From Escherichia phage vB_EcoP-101120B1-2, in the sequence record MZ234022.1: DNA of 39,845 nt, one strand, 5' to 3'. Both the position numbers and the translations under genes were made by a program. Positions within the stretch are counted from its first letter, which is position 1, and every line of letters begins with the position of its first letter. The notes under the pieces are model-generated. The model did no database searches and was not told the origin of the DNA. It saw only the letters and a program-made list of their open reading frames with translations. Of this stretch, positions 6,234-25,794 are shown in pieces.

Positions 6234-6428
6234 ATGATTGAGTTAGACTTCAAGAATGAGGTCCTTAAAGCCTCTCCTATCGTCGGGACCGCTGCGGCTG
6301 ATGGTGCCAGTCGGTTCTTCTTCGGACTTACACTGAACGAATGGTTCTACGTTGCAGCTATCGCGTACACCGTTGTCCAGATTGGTGTGCTAGTCTACAA
6401 AACGATTAAAGGAGGTGGTAAAACATGA
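6234..6428 (+). CDS. Type II holin (gp17.5 homolog)
   Basis: MIELDFKNEVLKASPIVGTAAADGASRFFFGLTLNEWFYVAAIAYTVVQIG closely matches T7 gp17.5 as recalled; single hydrophobic segment; SD GGAGG. Confidence 0.85.
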   Translation: MIELDFKNEVLKASPIVGTAAADGASRFFFGLTLNEWFYVAAIAYTVVQIGVLVYKTIKGGGKT

Positions 6429-6688
6429 CGCAGATGGACTTAGAGAAGTTCCTCTTGATGCTGGATACTGAACGTGCTAGACTCATGCTGCAAGACCTGC
6501 GGGATGACTCTAAGCGTTCACCTCAGCTTTACAACGCCATTGAGAAGCTACTGGCTCGTCACAACTTCGTGCTAAGTAAGGTGTCTGTGGACGAGAAGAC
6601 GCTGGCTGATATGGAGGCCCTGAACGCAGAGTACGATAAGGTGCTTTCAGCGACTGAGGATAATGACACCGGGTATGGCGTTCAATAA
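6425..6688 (+). CDS. Terminase small subunit / DNA maturation protein A (gp18 homolog)
   Basis: 87 aa at the T7 gene 18 position; FLLMLDTERARLMLQDL...SPQLYNAIEKLLARH resembles T7 gp18 ITFLEMLDTAMAQRMLADL...SPQLYNAINKLLDRH. Confidence 0.85.
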   Translation: MTQMDLEKFLLMLDTERARLMLQDLRDDSKRSPQLYNAIEKLLARHNFVLSKVSVDEKTLADMEALNAEYDKVLSATEDNDTGYGVQ

Positions 6689-6692
6689 GTGT

Positions 6693-6736
6693 TAGACTCA
6701 AGGTCATTACTATATGTAGTGGCCTTTATGGTTAAC
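6693..6736 (+). promoter_or_regulatory. Conserved RNA hairpin, late family copy 1 (candidate RNase III processing site, T7 R18.5 position)
   Basis: TAGACTCAAGGTCAT...GTGGCCTTTATG shared with 16336..16379 and 23562..23602. Stem AAGGUCA/UGGCCUU (one G-U) is conserved while the loops differ. Confidence 0.45.
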
Positions 6737-6789
6737 ACTAACTAGTGGAGGAGACTCTACGTGAAATCTGATAAACCGGGAGGGCAACT

Positions 6790-7233
6790 ATGCTCGAATT
6801 TTTAAAGAGAGCGGCTCCGTGGTTACTTGCAGCAGTGATGTTTGCTGGTGGCTACCACACCGCTAACAATAAGTGGGAGGCTAAGGTAAATGCAGAATAC
6901 ACCTCGAATCTTAAGGCATCGGAGGATACAAGGCTTGCTGTCCAAGCTGAAGTCAACAAAGTGTCCAAACGGTTTCAGGACGAAATGTCCTCGCTGGAAG
7001 GCAGCACTGACAGGATTATTGCTGACCTTCAGTCTGACAATAAGCGGCTGCGCATCCGAGTCAAACCTACGAGTGGAACCACGCAAAGTGACGGTCGATG
7101 CGTCATTGATGGTTACGCCGAACTTGACGAACGAGATGCTAAACGTCTTATCTCCATCGGACTGAAAGGGGACGCTTGGATTAAAGCACTACAGGATACT
7201 ATCCGCAAACTTCAACAAGACAAGGAGAAATGA
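6790..7233 (+). CDS. Rz-like i-spanin (gp18.5 homolog)
   Basis: MLEFLKRAAPWLLAAVMFAGG N-terminal TM segment; ...STDRIIADLQSDNKRLRIRVK...DERDAKRLI...GDAWIKALQDTIRKLQ matches T7 gp18.5 as recalled. Confidence 0.85.
   Translation: MLEFLKRAAPWLLAAVMFAGGYHTANNKWEAKVNAEYTSNLKASEDTRLAVQAEVNKVSKRFQDEMSSLEGSTDRIIADLQSDNKRLRIRVKPTSGTTQSDGRCVIDGYAELDERDAKRLISIGLKGDAWIKALQDTIRKLQQDKEK
6890..7165 (+). CDS. Rz1-like o-spanin lipoprotein (gp18.7 homolog), embedded in the +1 frame of the Rz gene
   Basis: Contains lipobox-like LTISGC followed by ASES...VDASLMVTPNLTNEMLNV, matching T7 gp18.7. Embedded Rz/Rz1 architecture. Exact start uncertain. Confidence 0.65.
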   Translation: MQNTPRILRHRRIQGLLSKLKSTKCPNGFRTKCPRWKAALTGLLLTFSLTISGCASESNLRVEPRKVTVDASLMVTPNLTNEMLNVLSPSD

Positions 7234-7670: not shown

Positions 7671-9429
7671 GAAAACACCTGCTGAAAGACAGGCTGAAAT
7701 GACCCAAAGGATGAGGGACGACTTCGTGTTCTTCATCTTCGTTCTCTGGAAAGCGCTGAGCCTTCCGGTTCCAACCAGATGTCAGATAGATATGTGTAAG
7801 AAGCTGGCTGCTGGCGATAACCGACGCTTCATCCTTCAGGCGTTCCGAGGTATTGGCAAATCGTTTCTGACCTGTGGTTTCGTGGTCTGGAAGCTATGGA
7901 ATAACCCAGACTTGAAGTTCATGATTGTGTCGGCCTCAAAGGAGCGAGCCGATGCTAACTCCATCTTCATCAAGCGAATCATCGACCTCATGCCTCAGCT
8001 TCAGGAACTCAAACCTAAGCAGGGACAGCGAGATGCGGTTATTAGCTTCGACGTGGGACCTGCCAAGCCAGACCACTCACCTTCGGTTAAGTCCGTTGGT
8101 ATCACTGGTCAGTTGACTGGTAGTCGTGCTGACATCCTGATTGCCGATGACGTGGAGGTTCCGAACAACTCAGCGACTCAGGCTGCACGAGACCGTCTAT
8201 CAGAGCTTGTGAAAGAGTTCGACGCTATCCTGAAGCCGGGAGGTACGATCATCTATCTGGGTACTCCTCAGAACGAGATGACCCTGTACCGTGAGCTGGA
8301 AGGTCGTGGGTACACCACTACTATCTGGCCCGCTCGTTATCCACGCGACAGGAAGGACTGGCAGTCTTACGGCGACCGTCTGGCTCCTATGCTTCAGGCA
8401 GAGCTGGAAGAGGACCCTGAGTCCTTCTACTGGCGTCCGACTGATGAAGTACGCTTCGATGATACGGACCTGAAGGAACGTGAGCTGTCCTACGGTAAAG
8501 CTGGCTTCGCTCTACAGTTCATGCTTAACCCGAACCTGAGTGATGCCGAGAAGTACCCTCTTAAGCTCCGTGACCTTATCGTAGCCGACTTGGACCCAGC
8601 GTCCAGCCCAATGGCCTACCAATGGTTGCCGAACCCTCAGAACAAGCGTGAGGACGTTCCTAACGTTGGACTCATGGGTGACTCGTACCACACGTATCAG
8701 ACTGTAGGTTCTGCCTTCAGCTCATACACCCAGAAGATTCTGGTCATTGACCCTAGTGGTCGTGGTAAGGATGAAACTGGATATGCGGTACTGTACCAGC
8801 TCAACGGCTACATCTTCGCTATGGAAGTTGGTGGCATGCGTGGTGGTTATGAATACTCTACGCTGGAAGCCTTGGCTAAGATTGGTCGTAAGTGGAGGGT
8901 AAACGAATACGTCATTGAGGGTAACTTCGGTGATGGTATGTACCTTGAGCTATTCAAGCCTGCATCGGCCCGTATCCATCCTGCGGCTGTAACTGAAGTG
9001 AAGAGTAAGGGTCAGAAAGAACTACGCATCTGTGACGTTCTGGAGCCTATCATGGGGTCTCACAGACTTATCGTTAACGCTGCTGCTATCGTCCAAGACT
9101 ACCAGACAGCCTCTGACAAGGATGGTGTTCGTAACCCTATCTACTCTCTATTCTATCAGATGACACGTATCTCTCGTGAGCGTGGAGCCTTGGCACACGA
9201 TGACCGACTTGATGCGCTGGCTATCGGTGTACAGTTCTTCGTTGAGTCGATGGCTAAGGATGCCAACAAAGGCGAACGTGAAGTCACTGAGGAATGGCTG
9301 GAGGAACAGATGGAGAACCCACGGAAAGGCTTCGAGTCCATCCACACTGAGTTCTGGGACAATGGGGTCCGGGTAACTCACGATACGGACGACGAGCTTG
9401 GACTAGGGTCATACGTTACGTTCCACTAG
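7663..9429 (+). CDS. Terminase large subunit / DNA maturation protein B (gp19 homolog)
   Basis: 588 aa; long stretches match T7 gp19 ([91 protein letters not shown]). Confidence 0.95.
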
Positions 9430-10121: not shown

Positions 10122-10310
10122 TCTCACAGTTCAAGAACATCAAGTCTCCCCCATAGGCCTCTTTCAGTCCAGACCAAAGGCCCTACCCCAGTCTATCATA
10201 AGGTTGGACCGATGGTCAAGACTTCAGGTCAACGATAGGTTGTGGCTATGGCTTAGGGAAGGACGATAGGTTGGGACTATGGGTCTGTCTTTGAGTCTCT
10301 ATCTGTATCA
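10122..10310. repeat. Predicted direct terminal repeat / concatemer junction region (present once in this circular assembly); genome left end predicted near 10122
   Basis: TCTCACAGTT...CCCCCATAGG...GTCTGTCTTTGAGTCTCTATCTGT resembles the T7 left end TCTCACAGTG...CCCCCATAGGGGG...GTTTGTCTTTGGGTG...CCCTATCTGTTACAGTC as recalled. Boundaries are approximate. Confidence 0.3.
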
Positions 10311-10648: not shown

Positions 10649-10678
10649 TTGACAAGATGTACCGACTTAAAGTAGTAT
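10649..10678 (+). promoter_or_regulatory. Host sigma70-type early promoter (T7 A2/A3-like): -35 TTGACA, 18-bp spacer, -10 TAGTAT
   Basis: GTAGTTGACAAGATGTACCGACTTAAAGTAGTATGTACCACATC resembles T7 A3 TTGACAACATGAAG...TACGATGTACCACATG. Confidence 0.45.
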
Positions 10679-10790
10679 GTACCACATCAACACGAAACAA
10701 CGGTGACGACCAACACTGAAACGGTCTACCTGAAGTCCTCTGACTGAAGGGAATGCTCTTTAACAATCTGGATAAACTCTTAATGTGCGC

Positions 10791-10854
10791 CGACAGTGAT
10801 TAACTACAGGGTCTTTGAGTCTACATCTGAAGGCCCTGACTGATAGTCACTAAC
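10791..10854 (+). promoter_or_regulatory. Conserved 64-nt hairpin, early family copy 1 (candidate RNase III site, T7 R0.3 position)
   Basis: Near-identical to 11939..12002 (one mismatch); shorter variant at 11119..11171. Upper stem CAGGGTCTT/AAGGCCCTG, lower stem AGTGA/TCACT, separated by an internal loop, as in T7 RNase III sites. Confidence 0.55.
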
Positions 10855-10861
10855 TTAACGG

Positions 10862-11116
10862 ATGGACACTATGAAACACTTAAGCACAATCACTAATCGC
10901 AATGAAGTATTCGTGAACACTAAAGGTTATGCGTGGATTCAGCTTAAAGAGATGAGAGGAGCGCGTCACCGTGTGGTAGTTCGCAAGGTATCAAGCAAGC
11001 CGTTCAGCAACTACAGCGTAGATACTATGCGTATAGACAACGAGACTTACCTGATAGACTCGCAGATAACCGTGCGTCCTACAGCGGGCATCTCAGCTCC
11101 TTATTTCGCTAACTGA
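10862..11116 (+). CDS. Hypothetical early protein (84 aa), first gene of the early operon, upstream of the Ocr homolog
   Basis: ORF bracketed by two copies of the conserved early hairpin; MDTMKHLSTITNRNEVFVNTKGYAWIQLKEMRGARHRVVVRKV...; basic. No T7 counterpart recognised. Confidence 0.55.
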   Translation: MDTMKHLSTITNRNEVFVNTKGYAWIQLKEMRGARHRVVVRKVSSKPFSNYSVDTMRIDNETYLIDSQITVRPTAGISAPYFAN

Positions 11117-11118
11117 GA

Positions 11119-11171
11119 GTGATTAACTACAGGTCGTTAGACTGATAGCGGCCTGACTGATAGTCACTAAC
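11119..11171 (+). promoter_or_regulatory. Conserved hairpin, early family copy 2 (shorter variant) immediately upstream of the Ocr homolog
   Basis: GAGTGATTAACTACAGG...GGCCTGACTGATAGTCACTAAC shares both flanking arms with copies 1 and 3. Confidence 0.45.
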
Positions 11172-11199
11172 ACATAATTAACTTTGAGAGGATATAACT

Positions 11200-11706
11200 A
11201 TGGAACGTAATGCTAACGCATACTATGAGCTGCTGGCTGCAACCGTTGAGGCATTTATCGAGCGTATTCAGTACGACCACCTGACTCAAGATGATGACTA
11301 CAGCGATGCGCTGCATGAGGTCGTAGACGGTCAGGTTCCACACTATTACCACGAGATTTTTACGGTGATGGCTGCTGATGGTATAGACCACGAGTTCGAA
11401 GACTCTGGGCTGATGCCTGAAACCAAGGACGTAACGCGTATCCTACAAGCTCGCATCTATGAGGCGCTTTATAACGATGTGTCTAATAGCTTGGATGTAG
11501 TCTGGTTTGAGGATGAAGAGGCAGAAGAAGAGGATGAATATTGGGTAGTTGACGCTAAAACAGGCGCAATAATTGTGCAAGCTGTAGCTCTTGAGGTCGC
11601 TACTGCATGTACCAAGGTTAACTATGCGGCAGGTCGCCACCTGAAGGTGGAAGACATCAATGATAACGTAGTGTTCGACCCTGCGGCTGAGGACTGCGAG
11701 CGATGA
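11200..11706 (+). CDS. ocr: Ocr-like DNA mimic (gp0.3 homolog, anti-restriction) with an extra C-terminal region of about 45 aa
   Basis: [43 protein letters not shown] matches T7 Ocr [43 protein letters not shown]. The acidic run [10 protein letters not shown] corresponds to the T7 C-terminus but the ORF continues (168 vs 117 aa). Confidence 0.85.
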
Positions 11707-11873
11707 TAACTTACGGTTTATGCCAGCACCACGTCACCAACGCCCGACTTATGGTCAAGACCGGGCGGTTAACCCATGATGAGACTATGCGTCTCCTGAA
11801 GGTGGTCTACAAGCGCCGCAAGCGCATACACGACAGTTTGCACGCTGAGGATAACCAACAATGCTCCAGATAA
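11703..11873 (+). CDS. Small hypothetical early protein (56 aa), basic
   Basis: ATGA overlap with the Ocr stop; [56 protein letters not shown]; weak RBS. Confidence 0.3.
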
Positions 11874-11938
11874 CTTATAGCAGCGAACAAGCGTTCTACG
11901 ACGGGTGCTACGAGATGATGAAGCGCGATACTTGCTAG

Positions 11939-12002
11939 CGACAGTGATTAACTACAGGGTCTTTGAGTCTACATCTGAAGGCCCTGACTGATAGCCACTA
12001 AC
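11939..12002 (+). promoter_or_regulatory. Conserved 64-nt hairpin, early family copy 3 (candidate RNase III site)
   Basis: 63 of 64 nt identical to 10791..10854; immediately upstream of ORF 12019. Confidence 0.55.
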
Positions 12003-12018
12003 AACTGAGAGGACAGAT

Positions 12019-12246
12019 ATGAACACAATCACTGGTGCCATAGCCAAAGGTTTTCGAGCAATTTTCAGTGAATCGCAAGAAGTATGCACCAATCATAAAT
12101 TCGTACTTTCTTGCGTAGTAGGGGACGAGTTTGACGGATTCGATAAACTGGTGGTTTGCGACCATTGTGGACAAGAGGCTATCCAACGCTCAAACGGTAA
12201 ATTTGAATTAATAGACGATAGCCTTACAGAAGGAGACGGCGAGTAA
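12019..12246 (+). CDS. Hypothetical early protein (75 aa) with Cys-containing motif (C..C...CDHCG), possible zinc ribbon
   Basis: SD GAGAGGA upstream of ATG; MNTITGAIAKGF...VCTNHKFVLSCVVGDEFDGFDKLVVCDHCGQEAIQ; acidic C-terminus. Confidence 0.55.
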   Translation: MNTITGAIAKGFRAIFSESQEVCTNHKFVLSCVVGDEFDGFDKLVVCDHCGQEAIQRSNGKFELIDDSLTEGDGE

Positions 12247-12378
12247 CCTAGATAAACAGGAGAGAACCAAATCGTAGCTTGACCATAACGCTGACAGGTG
12301 GATACTGAGTGATAGACGAGAGGCCGTCGAATGATAGGTGGCCTCAAAGATTATCACTTGAATTAATAGGAGTTAACT

Positions 12379-12993: not shown

Positions 12994-13016
12994 ACTTAAC
13001 TATCACTATAGGACTC
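12994..13016 (+). promoter_or_regulatory. Phage RNA polymerase promoter immediately upstream of the RNA polymerase gene, CTTAACTATCACTATAGGACTC
   Basis: Core ACTATCACTATAGG; +1 about 75 nt upstream of the gene 1 ATG; leader contains direct repeats AAGTGAAAGAC x2. Confidence 0.7.
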
Positions 13017-13085
13017 AAGGTCTAAGACTCCAAGTGAAAGACCAAAGAGACTTTAAGTGAAAGACTAATAACAAGGACTTTAAGT

Positions 13086-15767
13086 ATGAGCGTCATCTCT
13101 ATTGACAAACACGACTTCTCTGATGTGTCGAACGCCATTGAGCCGTTTAACCTGCTGGCTGACCACTACGGGCAAGACCTTGCAGTCAAACAGCTTCAGC
13201 TTGAGCATGAGGCCTACACTGAAGGTGAGCGACGTTTCATCAAGAACCTTGAGCGTCAGACCGAGCGAGGGGAACTGGCAGACAATCAGGTCGCCAAGCC
13301 TTTGATGCAGACTCTGGTTCCTAAGATTGCGCAAGCCGTCAAGGAGTGGCACGAAGGTCCAGACGGGAAGCTGTCAACCTCACGTCCGAGCGTAGCGTTC
13401 ACCATGTTAAGCACTGAAGAGAAGGCCGTCAAGGACCGCTCTCTTCGCATCTCCTGCGAGTCTGCTGCGGTTATCATACTGAAGGTCATCCTCTCCAAGC
13501 TGGTCAAGCCTGAAGGTATACCGATTACACCGATGGCCTCCGCGATAGGTCGCACACTTGAGGATGAAATCCGATTCGGTCGCATTCGTGACAAGGAGAA
13601 GGAGCACTTCAAGAAGGCGATAGCTGATAACCTGAACAAGAGAGCCGGGGCATCATACAAGAAAGCCTACATGCAAGCGGTCGAGACATCCATGCTGGAG
13701 CAAGGCCAACTAGAAGATGCGTGGGGAACTTGGAGTCCGACCGAGGCTGTCCACGTTGGAATCAAGATGCTGGAGATTGTCATACAGTCAACACAACTGG
13801 TCAAGCTTAAGCGTTACGGTGCTGGCAATGCAGCGGCTGACGTTGAGATGGTCCACCTGTCAGACTTCTGGGTCAAGAAGATGGCACAACGAGGATTCAG
13901 CCTTGCGGGTATCGCCCCAGTCTACCAGCCTTGCGTCGTTCCGCCTAAGCCGTGGACTGGTGTCGTAGGCGGTGGGTATTGGGCCAAAGGTCGAAGACCA
14001 TTGCCACTGATTCGCTTAGGGTCTAAGTCTGCGGTAGCACGTTATGAAGACGTATACATGCCTGAAGTCTATGAAGCTGTGAATATCATCCAGAATACAC
14101 CTTGGAAAGTGAACAAGAAGGTATTGGACGTGGTGAACAGGGTCGAGAAGCTGAACAACACGCCTATTAATGACATCCCTCAGATGGAACCGCTGAAGCC
14201 TGAGGACTATGCTGGTGAAACCGAGGAGGAACTCAAGGCATGGAAGAAGGCTGCTGCTGGTATCTATCGCCGCGAGAAGGCCAGACAGTCACGCAGATTA
14301 TCACTGAGCTTTATCGTTAACCAAGCAAACAAGTTCTCTCAGTTCAAGGCCATCTGGTTCCCGTACAACATGGATTGGCGAGGTCGTGTCTACGCTGTCC
14401 CGATGTTCAACCCTCAGGGTAACGACATGCAGAAGGGGCTCCTGACTCTGGCAGTCGGCAAGCCTATTGGTGCTGACGGTTTCAAATGGCTGAAGGTCCA
14501 CGGTGCAAACTGTGCGGGTGTCGATAAAGTCACCTTCGATGAGCGCATCAAGTGGGTGGAAGACAACCACGAAAACATCATGGCTGCTGCTAAGGCACCG
14601 ATGGATAGCATTGAGTGGTGGGGCAAGTTAGACTCTCCGTTCTGCTTCCTAGCGTTCTGCTTCGAGTATGCTGGCGTAATGCACCACGGCTTGTCTTACT
14701 CCTGCTCGCTGCCGATAGCGTTCGATGGGTCCTGCTCTGGGATTCAGCACTTCAGCGCTATGCTTCGCGACCACATCGGTGGACATGCAGTAAACCTGAC
14801 GCCATCCGGTAAGGTCCAAGACATCTACCGCATCGTGTCTGACCGCATTGAGGAGGAGCTTAAAGTCCTACTGGTTAACGGTACGGACAACGAGATGGTA
14901 ACTCACGAGGACAAGAAAACTGGTGAGATTACCGAGCGTCTCAAGCTGGGGACACGAGAGCTTGCCCGTCAGTGGCTGACCTACGGTATGTCACGAAAGG
15001 TCACTAAGCGTTCGGTCATGACTCTGGCCTACGGGTCGAAAGAGTACGGCTTCGCAGACCAAGTTTACGAGGACATCGTGATGCCAGCGATTGACTCAGG
15101 GTCTGGCGCTATGTTCACTGAACCAAGCCAAGCAGCTCGCTTCATGGCTAAGATGATTTGGGAAGCTGTGAGTGTGACCGTAGTTGCTGCGGTTGACGCG
15201 ATGAAATGGCTTCAGGGTGCTGCCAAGCTGCTTGCTGCTGAAGTGAAGGACAAGAAGACTGGAGAAATCCTGAAGCCTTGTCTTCCGGTACACTGGGTCA
15301 CACCTGATGGTTTCCCTGTCTGGCAGGAATACCGAAAGAAGGACACCACTCGTCTGAACCTGATGTTCTTAGGGTCATTCAACCTTCAGCCTACCGTCAA
15401 CAAAGGCACGAAGAAAGAGCTGGACAAGCACAAGCAGGAGTCAGGCATTAGCCCGAACTTCGTCCACTCACAAGATGGTAGCCACCTCCGCAAGACTGTA
15501 GTCCACACGCACCGCAAATATGGCGTGATGTCATTCGCAGTGATTCACGATAGCTTCGGGACCATCCCGGCTGACGCTGAGTATCTGTTCCGTGGAGTCC
15601 GTGAGACGATGGTCGAGACCTACCGCGACAACGATGTGCTGCTTGACTTCTACGAGCAGTTTGAATACCAGCTTCACGAGAGCCAGAGAGACAAGTTGCC
15701 TGAGCTTCCTAAGAAAGGTAAACTGAATATCGAAGACATCTTGTCTTCAGACTTTGCATTCGCTTAA
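13086..15767 (+). CDS. Single-subunit DNA-dependent RNA polymerase (gp1 homolog)
   Basis: 893 aa, collinear with T7 RNAP (883 aa): RFGRIRD, FQPCVVPPKPWTG, AIWFPYNMDWRGRVYAV, FNPQGNDM, DGSCSGIQHFSAMLRD, VTKRSVMTLAYGS, FVHSQDGSHLR, IHDSFGT, C-terminal DFAFA. Confidence 0.98.
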   Translation: MSVISIDKHDFSDVSNAIEPFNLLADHYGQDLAVKQLQLEHEAYTEGERRFIKNLERQTERGELADNQVAKPLMQTLVPKIAQAVKEWHEGPDGKLSTSRPSVAFTMLSTEEKAVKDRSLRISCESAAVIILKVILSKLVKPEGIPITPMASAIGRTLEDEIRFGRIRDKEKEHFKKAIADNLNKRAGASYKKAYMQAVETSMLEQGQLEDAWGTWSPTEAVHVGIKMLEIVIQSTQLVKLKRYGAGNAAADVEMVHLSDFWVKKMAQRGFSLAGIAPVYQPCVVPPKPWTGVVGGGYWAKGRRPLPLIRLGSKSAVARYEDVYMPEVYEAVNIIQNTPWKVNKKVLDVVNRVEKLNNTPINDIPQMEPLKPEDYAGETEEELKAWKKAAAGIYRREKARQSRRLSLSFIVNQANKFSQFKAIWFPYNMDWRGRVYAVPMFNPQGNDMQKGLLTLAVGKPIGADGFKWLKVHGANCAGVDKVTFDERIKWVEDNHENIMAAAKAPMDSIEWWGKLDSPFCFLAFCFEYAGVMHHGLSYSCSLPIAFDGSCSGIQHFSAMLRDHIGGHAVNLTPSGKVQDIYRIVSDRIEEELKVLLVNGTDNEMVTHEDKKTGEITERLKLGTRELARQWLTYGMSRKVTKRSVMTLAYGSKEYGFADQVYEDIVMPAIDSGSGAMFTEPSQAARFMAKMIWEAVSVTVVAAVDAMKWLQGAAKLLAAEVKDKKTGEILKPCLPVHWVTPDGFPVWQEYRKKDTTRLNLMFLGSFNLQPTVNKGTKKELDKHKQESGISPNFVHSQDGSHLRKTVVHTHRKYGVMSFAVIHDSFGTIPADAEYLFRGVRETMVETYRDNDVLLDFYEQFEYQLHESQRDKLPELPKKGKLNIEDILSSDFAFA

Positions 15768-16314: not shown

Positions 16315-16337
16315 CCTAAACTATCACTATAGGCTTA
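16315..16337 (+). promoter_or_regulatory. Phage RNA polymerase promoter (phi1.1 position), CTAAACTATCACTATAGGCTTAG
   Basis: Core motif, intergenic. Confidence 0.75.
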
Positions 16338-16379
16338 GACTCAAGGTCATGACTCAAAGTCGTGGCCTTCATGATTAAC
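16336..16379 (+). promoter_or_regulatory. Conserved RNA hairpin, late family copy 2 (candidate RNase III site, R1.1 position)
   Basis: TAGACTCAAGGTCAT...GTGGCCTTCATGATTAAC; same stem as copies at 6693 and 23562. Confidence 0.45.
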
Positions 16380-16410
16380 CCTAAATAAACACTACTGGAG
16401 ATTTAACCGT

Positions 16411-21588: not shown

Positions 21589-21667
21589 GTCTCCATAGCT
21601 CAAACGGTAGAGCGGTGGGTCGTGATGGCCTATTGCGATTAGGGTTCGAATCCCCGTGGAGACGCCA
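21589..21667 (+). tRNA. tRNA-like element: canonical acceptor stem, D-arm, T-arm and 3' CCA, but a non-canonical anticodon region (possible degenerate tRNA or tRNA-like processing signal)
   Basis: GTCTCCA (21589-95) pairs perfectly with TGGAGAC (21657-63), followed by G and CCA. D-arm GCTC-AAACGGTA-GAGC. T-arm TAGGG-TTCGAAT-CCCCG with one A-C mismatch. No 5-bp stem with a 7-nt loop and U33 could be folded in the intervening 26 nt. Confidence 0.4.
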
Positions 21668-21678
21668 CTAAGGAGTGA

Positions 21679-23382
<1,704 letters not shown>

Positions 23383-23393
23383 GGAGGAGTACA

Positions 23394-23558
23394 TTGCTAA
23401 GAAAACTTAAAGCTCGCTACCATCGGTTCATGTACAAATGGTGGAGCGATGAAGCAACCTGCCTGTCGAACATTCTGGGAGACCAGCGGTTCAACTCTGA
23501 GGCATGGAAGAAAGCTAACCGGAAGTTCATGTATCACTTCTTGCGTACAGACTTCTAG
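23394..23558 (+). CDS. Small hypothetical protein (about 54 aa), gp4.x-like by position; TTG start inferred
   Basis: Strong SD AAGGAGG 7 nt upstream of TTG at 23394; in-frame alternative ATG at 23430; the track ORF starts at GTG 23361 inside gp4. Confidence 0.35.
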   Translation: MLRKLKARYHRFMYKWWSDEATCLSNILGDQRFNSEAWKKANRKFMYHFLRTDF

Positions 23559-23561
23559 GTC

Positions 23562-23602
23562 TAGACTCAAGGTCATTCATAGCGAGTGGCCTTTATGATT
23601 AG
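23562..23602 (+). promoter_or_regulatory. Conserved RNA hairpin, late family copy 3 (candidate RNase III site, R4.7 position)
   Basis: TAGACTCAAGGTCATTCATAGCGAGTGGCCTTTATGATTAG; stem AAGGUCA/UGGCCUU. Confidence 0.45.
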
Positions 23603-23622
23603 ACTAAAGCGGAGGATTAACC

Positions 23623-25794
23623 ATGTTTGACCTTAAGAGTATCTGGGGTTCTGACATCGAGACCAACGGTCTCCTTGATACAGTCTCCCAGTTTCACTGT
23701 GGGGTCCTGATTAACGCCGAGTCGAATGAGACCCTTAAGTATGGGGTAGCTCCGATGGTCGGTATCGTCGGCGGCTTCAAAGAGTATGTTCATAAAGTGG
23801 AAGAGATTGCCGCATCACCTGATGGTATGCTGGTATTCCATAACGGTATCAACTATGACGTCCCGGCTATAGACAAGCTGAAGCGTTTGTACTTTGGGAA
23901 ACGCTTTAACTTCCCGAAACATAAGATGATTGATACCTTGGTGCTGGGACGCTTGATGTATCCAAACATTAAGTTCTCAGACATGGGCGCGGTGAAAGCT
24001 GGTCGTCTGCCACCTAAGATGATGGGACGCCAGTCTCTTGAGGCTTGGGGCTATCGTCTCGGTGAGATGAAAGGTGAGTACAAACACGATTACGTTGCCA
24101 AGTGCAAGGCTGAAGGTATCGAATATAAGGCTGGGGACGAATGGTTGTTCCCGTCTCAGGAGATGCTGGACTATAACGTTCAAGACGTTGTGGTCACACT
24201 GGCGTTGTTCAAGAAGTTCCTGACTGACAAGTATTACTTCCAGTCTGAACAGTTCGCTTTCGACCAGATTTATGCGTTGCGTCTGGAACATGATGCTGCG
24301 TGGACCTGTGCGAAGATGGAGCGTAATGGCTATCCGATGAACACCGAGATGGTCGAAGGCTTATATCGTGAACTCACTGTCAAACGAGCAGAGTTGCTGG
24401 ACAAGCTGCGTTCGACTTTCGGTAGCTGGTACGCACCAAAGGGAGGCAAGGAGTTCTTCAGGCATCCACGGACAGGTAAGGACCTTCCGAAGTATCCGAG
24501 GGTCGTGTATCCTAAGGTCGGTGGCATCTTTAAGAAGCCGAAGAACAAAGCTCAACGCTTAGGTCTTGAACCTTGTGAACGCGATACGCGAGACACGATG
24601 GAAGGAGCACCATTCACGCCAATCACTTACGTTGAGTTTAATCCGGGAAGCGGAGACCACTTAGCGAAAGTCCTGATGGAGCGTGGCTGGGAGCCTGTTG
24701 ACTTCACTGACACCGGGAAACCTGTAGTCGATGACGAGACGTTGGAACACGTTAAGTTACCAGACGCAGAGGCTCAGGCTTGCGTAGAGCTGGTCCGTGA
24801 GTATCTGGTAGTCCAGAAGCGCATCGGTCAGGCGGCTGAAGGTAAGAACGCATGGTTGAAACTTGTAGGTCCAGACGGACGGATGCACGGCTCAATAAAC
24901 CCATGCGGGGCAGTAACCGGACGTGCGACCCATAGTTCACCAAACATGGCTCAGGTCCCGGCTAACGGTGCTCCATATGGTGAGACTTGCCGTGGTGCTT
25001 TCGGTGCAGCGTGGAACAAGAAGGACGGTAAGCCAGACCCTTGGATTCAAGTTGGTGTGGATGCCTCAGGTCTTGAGCTTCGTTGTCTTGGGAACAGAGC
25101 GGCTCCGTTTGATGGTGGTGCATATGCGAAGACTGTGGTAGAAGGTGACATCCACTGGGCCAACGCAGTAAACGCTGGGTTAGCACCTAACGTCCAACGC
25201 GATAAGTCTAACCACGACCATGAGGCTTTCCGTAACAACGCTAAGACGTTCATCTACGCGTTCCTGTATGGTGCAGGGGCCGCTAAGATTGGACTGATAG
25301 TAGGCGGTGGTAAGAAGGAAGGTTCAGCGCTCATGAAGAAATTCATTGAGGGTACACCAGCTATCAAGGACCTCAGGGAAGCTGTAAGTAATACGTTAAT
25401 CTCAGACTCTAAGTGGGTGGACGGAGAGAACATCGTTAAATGGAAACGCCGTTGGTTGCGTGGACTCGATGGTCGCCGTATACACATACGGTCTCCACAC
25501 TCAGCACTGAACGCATTACTTCAAGGTGATGGTGCGGTAGTATGTAAGCACTGGATTGTTGAGACTGAACGTATGCTCGAAGAGGCCGGGTATGTCCACG
25601 GCTGGGAAGGAGACTTTGCGTACATGGCATGGGTCCACGACGAATTGCAGATTGCAGCTCGGAACATGGAGATTGCCGAAGATATTCGCAGGATTGCTCA
25701 ACTTGCTATGCGTAAGGTGGGTGAGTTCTATAACTTTAAATGTGTCCTTGATACTGAAGGTAAGATTGGACCAACTTGGAAGGAGTGTCACTAA
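23623..25794 (+). CDS. DNA polymerase (gp5 homolog, family A with 3'-5' exonuclease)
   Basis: 723 aa; DIETNGL, FHNGINYDVPA, LEAWGYRLGEMKGEYK, YNVQDVVVT, GAVTGRATHSSPNMAQVP, KTFIYAFLYGAG, WVHDELQ, all collinear with T7 gp5. Confidence 0.98.
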   Translation: MFDLKSIWGSDIETNGLLDTVSQFHCGVLINAESNETLKYGVAPMVGIVGGFKEYVHKVEEIAASPDGMLVFHNGINYDVPAIDKLKRLYFGKRFNFPKHKMIDTLVLGRLMYPNIKFSDMGAVKAGRLPPKMMGRQSLEAWGYRLGEMKGEYKHDYVAKCKAEGIEYKAGDEWLFPSQEMLDYNVQDVVVTLALFKKFLTDKYYFQSEQFAFDQIYALRLEHDAAWTCAKMERNGYPMNTEMVEGLYRELTVKRAELLDKLRSTFGSWYAPKGGKEFFRHPRTGKDLPKYPRVVYPKVGGIFKKPKNKAQRLGLEPCERDTRDTMEGAPFTPITYVEFNPGSGDHLAKVLMERGWEPVDFTDTGKPVVDDETLEHVKLPDAEAQACVELVREYLVVQKRIGQAAEGKNAWLKLVGPDGRMHGSINPCGAVTGRATHSSPNMAQVPANGAPYGETCRGAFGAAWNKKDGKPDPWIQVGVDASGLELRCLGNRAAPFDGGAYAKTVVEGDIHWANAVNAGLAPNVQRDKSNHDHEAFRNNAKTFIYAFLYGAGAAKIGLIVGGGKKEGSALMKKFIEGTPAIKDLREAVSNTLISDSKWVDGENIVKWKRRWLRGLDGRRIHIRSPHSALNALLQGDGAVVCKHWIVETERMLEEAGYVHGWEGDFAYMAWVHDELQIAARNMEIAEDIRRIAQLAMRKVGEFYNFKCVLDTEGKIGPTWKECH

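Follow-up and report, generated by a model that had tools for sequence, protein, structure and literature searches.

Repeated hairpins in the early region of a K1F-like coliphage: predicted RNase III processing sites that look like joints between gene cassettes

Why does the same hairpin recur three times between positions 10791 and 12002 of a phage early region, each time just ahead of a very small open reading frame (ORF)? The sequence in question is that of Escherichia phage vB_EcoP-101120B1-2 (MZ234022.1; 39,845 nt), and we refer to this whole stretch of DNA as the window. It is a circularly permuted Kayfunavirus genome, that is, the genome of a K1F-like member of the T7 family. Its early region lies between the end of the large terminase gene at 9429 and the start of the RNA polymerase gene at 13086. 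Between 10400 and 12400 its sequence has 99.4-99.6% identity with Escherichia phages of the PM129 group and about 92% with K1F. In T7 and T3, sites for ribonuclease III (RNase III) are textbook knowledge. Based on sequence comparisons and predicted folds, the three repeats and a fourth hairpin at 12305-12361 are probably (at a probability of roughly 0.85) T7/T3-type RNase III processing signals in the early polycistronic transcript. They also look like recombination joints for early gene cassettes.

A first-pass annotation of this DNA had described two 64-nt copies differing at one position and a shorter variant sharing both arms, and this description proved accurate. A repeat search of the window identified 10791-10854 (copy 1) and 11939-12002 (copy 3) as a 64-nt direct repeat with 98% identity and a spacing of 1,148 bp. 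The sole difference is T10847 in copy 1 versus C11995 in copy 3. The 20-nt 3' arm, CCTGACTGATAGTCACTAAC, is exactly repeated at 11152-11171, in copy 2. In the window, the arm pattern AGTGATTAACTACAGG-N15-40-CCTGACTGATAGYCACT occurs exactly three times, each time on the + strand; it did not occur in any of 100 dinucleotide shuffles. Copy 2 matches this pattern exactly; it has the arms of copy 1 and differs in the top of the upper stem and in the loop. ORF starts at 10862, 11200 and 12019 follow copies 1, 2 and 3 by 8, 29 and 17 nt, respectively, as had also been noticed, and the Shine-Dalgarno sequences lie outside the hairpin stems.

Copies 1 and 2 are predicted to fold into two stems, a lower one of 8 bp and an upper one of 9-10 bp, with an internal loop between them. 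The lower stem of copy 1 pairs 10795-10802 with 10844-10851, and the upper stem pairs 10807-10815 with 10830-10838. Fold energies were -23.2 kcal/mol (z -3.2) for copy 1 and -23.8 kcal/mol (z -4.6) for copy 2. The complementary strands of these copies fold like shuffles (z -0.1 and -0.9). Copy 3 keeps the architecture when folded as a 63-nt unit (-18.2 kcal/mol; lower-stem pair probabilities 0.67-0.95). The two stems and internal loop that had been proposed were thus recovered in all three copies, in copy 3 only as the 63-nt unit.

We found that both stems are supported by covariation. Alignment A3 was restricted to Kayfunavirus early regions and contains 19 distinct hairpins, of four paralog types that we named L, S, H and F. 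The two-stem structure pairs 96.5% of the cells of A3, compared to 84.3% in column shuffles, and none of 500 shuffles reached the observed value. Both sides have changed in 6 of the 17 pairs, that is, these pairs are compensatory. Sliding the 3' partner by 1-3 columns reduced pairing to 26-52%. The picture was unchanged with 39 distinct sequences. The stems contain many U.G pairs, and these, along with the shuffle-like fold of the complementary strand, led us to infer that the structure is an RNA structure of the transcribed strand.

A model built from these hairpins recognizes RNase III sites of other phages. We made a covariance model (model R1) from A3, without T7 or T3 sequences, and ran it unfiltered. 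T3 (NC_003298) served as the benchmark because the GenBank feature tables consulted for T7 do not include the R sites; the T3 record has ten stem-loops annotated as an RNase III recognition site. The top seven matches in T3 were R4.7, R0.5, R0.3, R6.5, R1.1, R18.5 and R1, seven of the ten annotated sites. These matches were at most 1-3 nt from the annotated limits and no other match outscored them. The eight best matches in T7 fall at the positions of R0.5, R6.5, R0.3, R1.1, R18.5, R1, R4.7 and R1.3. Dunn and Studier (1983) reportedly placed T7 cleavages at 890, 1468, 3138, 5887, 13892, 18563 and 36856. All seven fall in a single alignment column, 3 nt beyond the upper stem (..UAU^GAU..), and because they share this column we predict one cut at the corresponding position in each of the four early hairpins (Table 1). 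In Rfam, the hairpins matched no family, either at the gathering threshold or at E<=1.

Together, the hairpins have two helical segments and an internal loop on the transcribed strand, similarity to curated sites, compensatory substitutions, and intergenic positions syntenic with those of T7 and T3 sites. The first-pass prediction of T7-type RNase III sites is strengthened by model transfer, covariation, strand, and the terminator and Rfam tests, all of which came out in its favor.

Dunn and Studier are said to have described, in 1983, T7 RNase III sites R0.3, R0.5, R1, R1.1 and others. The window hairpins are like the T7 sites in having two stems and an internal loop, in being intergenic and on the transcribed strand, and in sharing the motifs AGUGAU..ACU.AAGG/CAGG...GGCCU..GAU..UCACU. 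They also share the synteny of R0.3, including an identical 16-mer upstream, and the column of the predicted cut. There are differences as well. The L and S types in the window have a CAGG...CCUG base and ACUA/ACUGA loops (nearest to T7 R1), and not the common ACUCAAGG...CCUUUAUGA of T7. Unlike in T7, paralogs in the window are near-identical within one genome, four sites precede gene 1, each ahead of a very small ORF, and there is no R1-type hairpin directly before the RNA polymerase gene. The slots R0.3, R0.5, R1.1, R4.7 and R18.5 are shared with T3 in gene order. In contrast to the window hairpins, the T3 sites are single-copy and mutually divergent, and none is duplicated. T3 R3.8, R13 and R1.3 have a different shape and are not matched by model R1.

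The relationship of copy 1 to R0.3 is best seen in relatives. The L hairpin is directly before ocr (gene 0.3) in MopsHU1, SH3, PE3-1, EcoDS1 and CR44b, none of which has a gp0.2 gene, and we therefore regard L as the orthologue of R0.3. In the EcoDS1 record, three host RNA polymerase promoters are annotated just 5' of the long hairpin. In the K1F clade, including the window, the gp0.2 ORF and an S hairpin are inserted between L and ocr. The first-pass annotation had placed copy 1 at the R0.3 position and had pointed to a flanking sequence shared with T7, CTCTTTAACAATCTGG. The match of the flank is exact, and the placement holds by ancestry, given the flank and the position of L before ocr in relatives. 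It does not hold by immediate neighborhood, as ocr in the window follows copy 2. By standard T3/T7 nomenclature, R0.3 is between A3 and gene 0.3 (PMC3276506).

The early transcript would be processed as follows. Host RNA polymerase would start at left-end promoters, the last of which (10649-10678) is strong and is the final host promoter upstream of the hairpins, and would read through the early genes. Each hairpin would form in the RNA, its internal loop lying between two stems of about 8-10 bp. Host RNase III would then make a single cut on the 3' side of the internal loop, at the positions predicted by homology. The upstream mRNA would be left with a protective 3' hairpin, and the downstream mRNA would start 20-40 nt before its own Shine-Dalgarno sequence and start codon. 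Small gene cassettes would thereby be insulated from their neighbors. E. coli RNase III is known to cleave the mRNAs of T7, at ten sites (PMC6938266).

We considered whether the hairpins might be rho-independent terminators or attenuators, and rejected this. They have no U-tract, the sequence following the stem is CACUAAC..., and a terminator scan was empty at the hairpins.

The hairpins could also be mainly translational or stability elements that act without cleavage, through 3' protection, ribosome standby, insulation or partial attenuation. Each of the three repeats is 8-29 nt upstream of a start codon, and stable stems could stop 3' exonucleases without any need for RNase III. However, no Shine-Dalgarno sequence is in a stem, and neither a U-tract nor a terminator match goes with any hairpin. 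In addition, the T7 cut site is matched by the ..U^GAU.. context and by the internal loop, which is conserved, and the protective 3' hairpin of T7 is itself produced by RNase III cleavage. We think that action without cleavage is improbable.

Several points weigh against RNase III processing. In a 76-nt context, the minimum free energy (MFE) structure of copy 3 is without the lower stem (z -1.3), because C11995 converts an A-U pair of this stem to an A.C mismatch. The mismatch costs copy 3 an estimated 5 kcal/mol or so, and copy 3 may be a poorer substrate. Model R1 gives the T7 and T3 sites scores of only 14-40 bits, and it missed R3.8 and R13 in both phages. The T7 cut coordinates attributed to Dunn and Studier (1983) have the perfect co-alignment as their only support. 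The literature found on K1F together with RNase III consisted of reviews. Finally, RNase III is dispensable for growth of T7 (PMC6938266), and any effect on fitness may therefore be small.

An A.C mismatch at the lower-stem column of window position 11995, which pairs with A8 of the 5' arm, recurs across different paralog types. It is present in F-type hairpins of HC12, SH3, phiHAO1-1 and others. This pair (8-56) is A-U in 14 and unpaired in 5 of the 19 hairpins, and is unpaired in 10 of 39 in the larger set. RNase III possibly tolerates the mismatch here, or is tuned by it.

The first-pass annotation held that absence of the repeats from related genomes would speak against its prediction. We found the hairpin element in 195 phage records. 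A pattern scan of IMG/VR gave only three contigs, and the comparison was therefore done on GenBank phages. In 20 early regions of Kayfunavirus genomes there are 2-5 hairpins per region, and every one has an ORF start 4-33 nt downstream. Apart from the first, most hairpins adjoin or overlap the stop codon of the ORF before them; the exception is the F slot in several genomes, including the window.

Close relatives differ by units that end in hairpins. The window corresponds to PM129 (99.6% identical) minus exactly one 349-bp unit, consisting of an S hairpin and a 92-aa ORF, flanked by two identical S copies. The order of units is also permuted: it is L-[ORF92]-S-[ORF84]-S-ocr in Vec13 and L-[ORF84]-S-[ORF92]-S-ocr in PM129. 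Comparing these two phages, the leaders move with the ORFs and the hairpins are at the joints. Both types of junction were seen in several independent isolates, and Vec13 was also found as an IMG/VR contig. Copy 3 belongs to an insertion of an L hairpin and the 75-aa ORF that splits a gene for a 41-aa protein; judged against relatives in which it is full length, that gene is truncated through this insertion. In HC12 and ST0223 an H-type hairpin precedes the 75-aa ORF, and similarity to the window resumes within the shared 3' arm, CCTGACTGATAG.

Phage vB_EcoP-101120B2 has two identical tandem S hairpins, one base apart and with no ORF between them (1716-1827 of locus L010). Possible explanations are a cassette site that is "empty", what is left after a deletion, or an artefact of assembly.

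At the level of DNA, the exact 16-nt and 20-nt arms of paralogous hairpins would serve as patches of homology, as the comparative data suggest, at which early-gene cassettes would be gained, lost, swapped and reordered. We tallied breakpoints between the window and 17 relatives. High-scoring segment pairs (HSPs) of at least 100 nt were used and breakpoints were clustered, because paralogous hairpin-to-hairpin matches inflate the tally. Six of 15 breakpoint clusters touched a hairpin, compared to 13% expected (binomial P about 0.01). This enrichment is modest and the compared genomes are not independent. In addition, recombination between copies 1 and 3 should delete gp0.2, ocr and gene 0.35, and this deletion is in no deposited genome. 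Its absence fits if loss of ocr is costly, which is plausible.

The hairpins might be selfish or scar DNA, for example a palindrome like those of miniature inverted-repeat transposable elements (MITEs) or repetitive extragenic palindromic (REP) sequences, or a recombination footprint, carried along with inserted ORFs and having no role in RNA processing. Hairpin copy number does vary between phages that are >99% identical, the hairpins bound the cassettes, and SR04 has an inverted hairpin apex, as DNA inverted repeats would give. Arguing the other way, the fold is strand-specific with many U.G pairs, and the elements are on the transcribed strand only and between ORFs only. They are homologous to the RNase III sites annotated in T3 and to the T7 sites, in register with the T7 cuts, and 195 records keep the long hairpin at the R0.3 slot. 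We consider it very unlikely that they are DNA elements of this kind.

The apex of the L hairpin in SR04 (2608-2670 of locus L009) deserves description. Its apical 18 nt, TTCAGATGTAGACTCAAA, are the exact reverse complement of TTTGAGTCTACATCTGAA, which is present in all other phages. SR04 has an inverted loop on an unaltered stem, a naturally occurring inversion inside an inverted repeat.

Why copies 1 and 3 are nearly identical is a separate question. Under the RNase III reading their likeness would reflect a recent recombination or conversion event and have no function of its own. The two L copies of LI10P1, which has the same insertion as the window, differ at several positions, and because of this divergence the one-mismatch identity in the window looks recent. 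The alternative is that identity is kept by selection for a shared function, such as long-range pairing between the copies or their coordinated processing. Selection would fit a single mismatch in 64 nt at this distance, and also the finding of the two-copy state in the PM129 group and in LI10P1. But the divergence in LI10P1 is hard to square with selection, as are the single L copy of most relatives and the H-type hairpin that accompanies the 75-aa ORF in HC12 and ST0223. Moreover, the insertion splits an older gene, which is typical of recent recombination. Selection for identity seems extremely unlikely.

The cassette-like behavior recalls the promoter early stem-loops (PeSLs) of T4-type phages, which are mobile regulatory cassettes (Arbiol et al. 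2010, PMC2839356; PMC4122927). Like PeSLs, the hairpins are repeated regulatory stem-loops that flank small nonessential early ORFs, and insertions, deletions, replacements and reordering among close relatives end in the motifs. Unlike PeSLs, which combine a sigma-70 promoter with a terminator stem-loop, the window hairpins contain neither, and there are only a handful of hairpin sites per genome. It is possible, with a chance that we put slightly short of even, that the RNase III hairpins of K1F-like phages are more than processing signals and have the function that PeSLs have in T4. They would then be portable joints, and through their shared arms anti-defence or host-takeover mini-genes of the early operon would often undergo homologous exchange, deletion, duplication and reordering, each gene receiving a processed 5' end of its own where it lands.

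Features of the early region, and further hairpins of the family, are listed in Table 1. The first-pass annotation was right about three copies with exact arms and overlooked the rest: a fourth early hairpin, with the same architecture and a sequence very near that of T7 R0.5, and three more elsewhere in the window. The R4.7 site is upstream of gene 5 in T3, and from position and size only, the 723-aa ORF would occupy the slot of T7/T3 gene 5.

Table 1. Hairpins, ORFs and other features of the window discussed in the text
Feature	Position	Strand	Remarks
RNase III-type hairpin, R18.5 position	6685..6742	+	38.4 bits; between ORFs 6425-6688 and 6790-7233
Sigma-70-type early promoter, TTGACA-18-TAGTAT	10649..10678	+	10/12 consensus matches; T7 A3 position
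CTCTTTAACAATCTGG, flank upstream of R0.3	10756..10771	+	identical to T7 814-829 (16-mer)
Hairpin copy 1, long (L) type, R0.3 orthologue	10792..10854	+	69.2 bits; predicted single cut after U10841
84-aa ORF, K1F gp0.2 homolog	10862..11116	+	phrog_10124, function unknown; stop abuts copy 2
Hairpin copy 2, short (S) type	11115..11171	+	73.2 bits; predicted cut after U11158
ocr (gene 0.3) homolog, 168 aa	11200..11706	+	phrog_2568, E 4e-54; also from annotations
gp0.35 homolog	11703..11873	+	7 codons longer than in K1F
25-codon remnant of 41-aa gene	11862..11939	+	full-length gene in MopsHU1 and phiHAO1-1
Hairpin copy 3, L type	11940..12002	+	67.3 bits; predicted cut after U11989
75-aa ORF	12019..12246	+	phrog_32657, function unknown; follows copy 3
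Fourth early hairpin, F type	12305..12361	+	63.3 bits; -22.9 kcal/mol, z -4.45; predicted cut after A12348
RNase III-type hairpin, R1.1 position	16328..16385	+	25.8 bits; directly after phage promoter-like sequence at 16320
RNase III-type hairpin, R4.7 position	23555..23608	+	25.2 bits; just 5' of 723-aa ORF at 23623

The Ocr homolog is longer than Ocr of T7, which has 117 aa. Within 11507-11708, similarity to many relatives is lost at about 11507-11534 and regained at about 11689-11708. Because similarity breaks and then resumes within ocr, the C-terminal extension appears to be an exchangeable module inside the gene.

The apex of the long hairpin, GTCTTTGAGTCTACATCTG (10811-10829 and 11959-11977), matches GTCTTTGAGTCTCTATCTG at 10287-10305 at 17 of 19 positions. 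The latter is in the left-end short-repeat region and the likeness may be chance.

We found no R1-type hairpin before the RNA polymerase gene (12999-13090, + strand), where the fold is shuffle-like (z 0.03). This interval begins with a phage promoter-like sequence at 12999, followed by only a 5' half-motif, GACTCAAGGTC; T7 and T3 have R1 there.

The slot that holds phi3.8 and RNase III site R3.8 in T7 and T3 contains a tRNA-like element in the window (21589-21667, + strand, 79 nt), and model R1 had no match in this area. The element matches the Rfam tRNA family at 38.7 bits and is called tRNA-Ser(tga) by ARAGORN. Its location is intergenic: the phage-promoter-like AACTATCACCTTAGGGA precedes it, and the primase/helicase gene starts 15 nt downstream, at 21682. 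It occurs in only 33 phage records, with inconsistent labels (tRNA-Thr, tRNA-Pseudo, "tRNA", or none). It might be an RNase P/Z processing signal that replaces the RNase III site.

The hairpins are ordinary members of the well-known class of RNase III signals, and their behavior as cassette joints is a modest addition; none of these results overturns existing understanding. None of the Kayfunavirus records examined has annotated RNase III sites, and a usable model with predicted cut positions should allow better annotation of hundreds of coliphages that are candidates for therapy. The hairpins delimit variable early mini-genes, including the neighborhood of ocr, and seem to be points of cassette exchange. 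If so, this would explain the reshuffling of host-takeover genes in K1F-like phages and suggests natural, insulated insertion sites for phage engineering. Should the equivalence to PeSLs also be correct, a T7-like phage would have a built-in "plug-and-play" cassette system.

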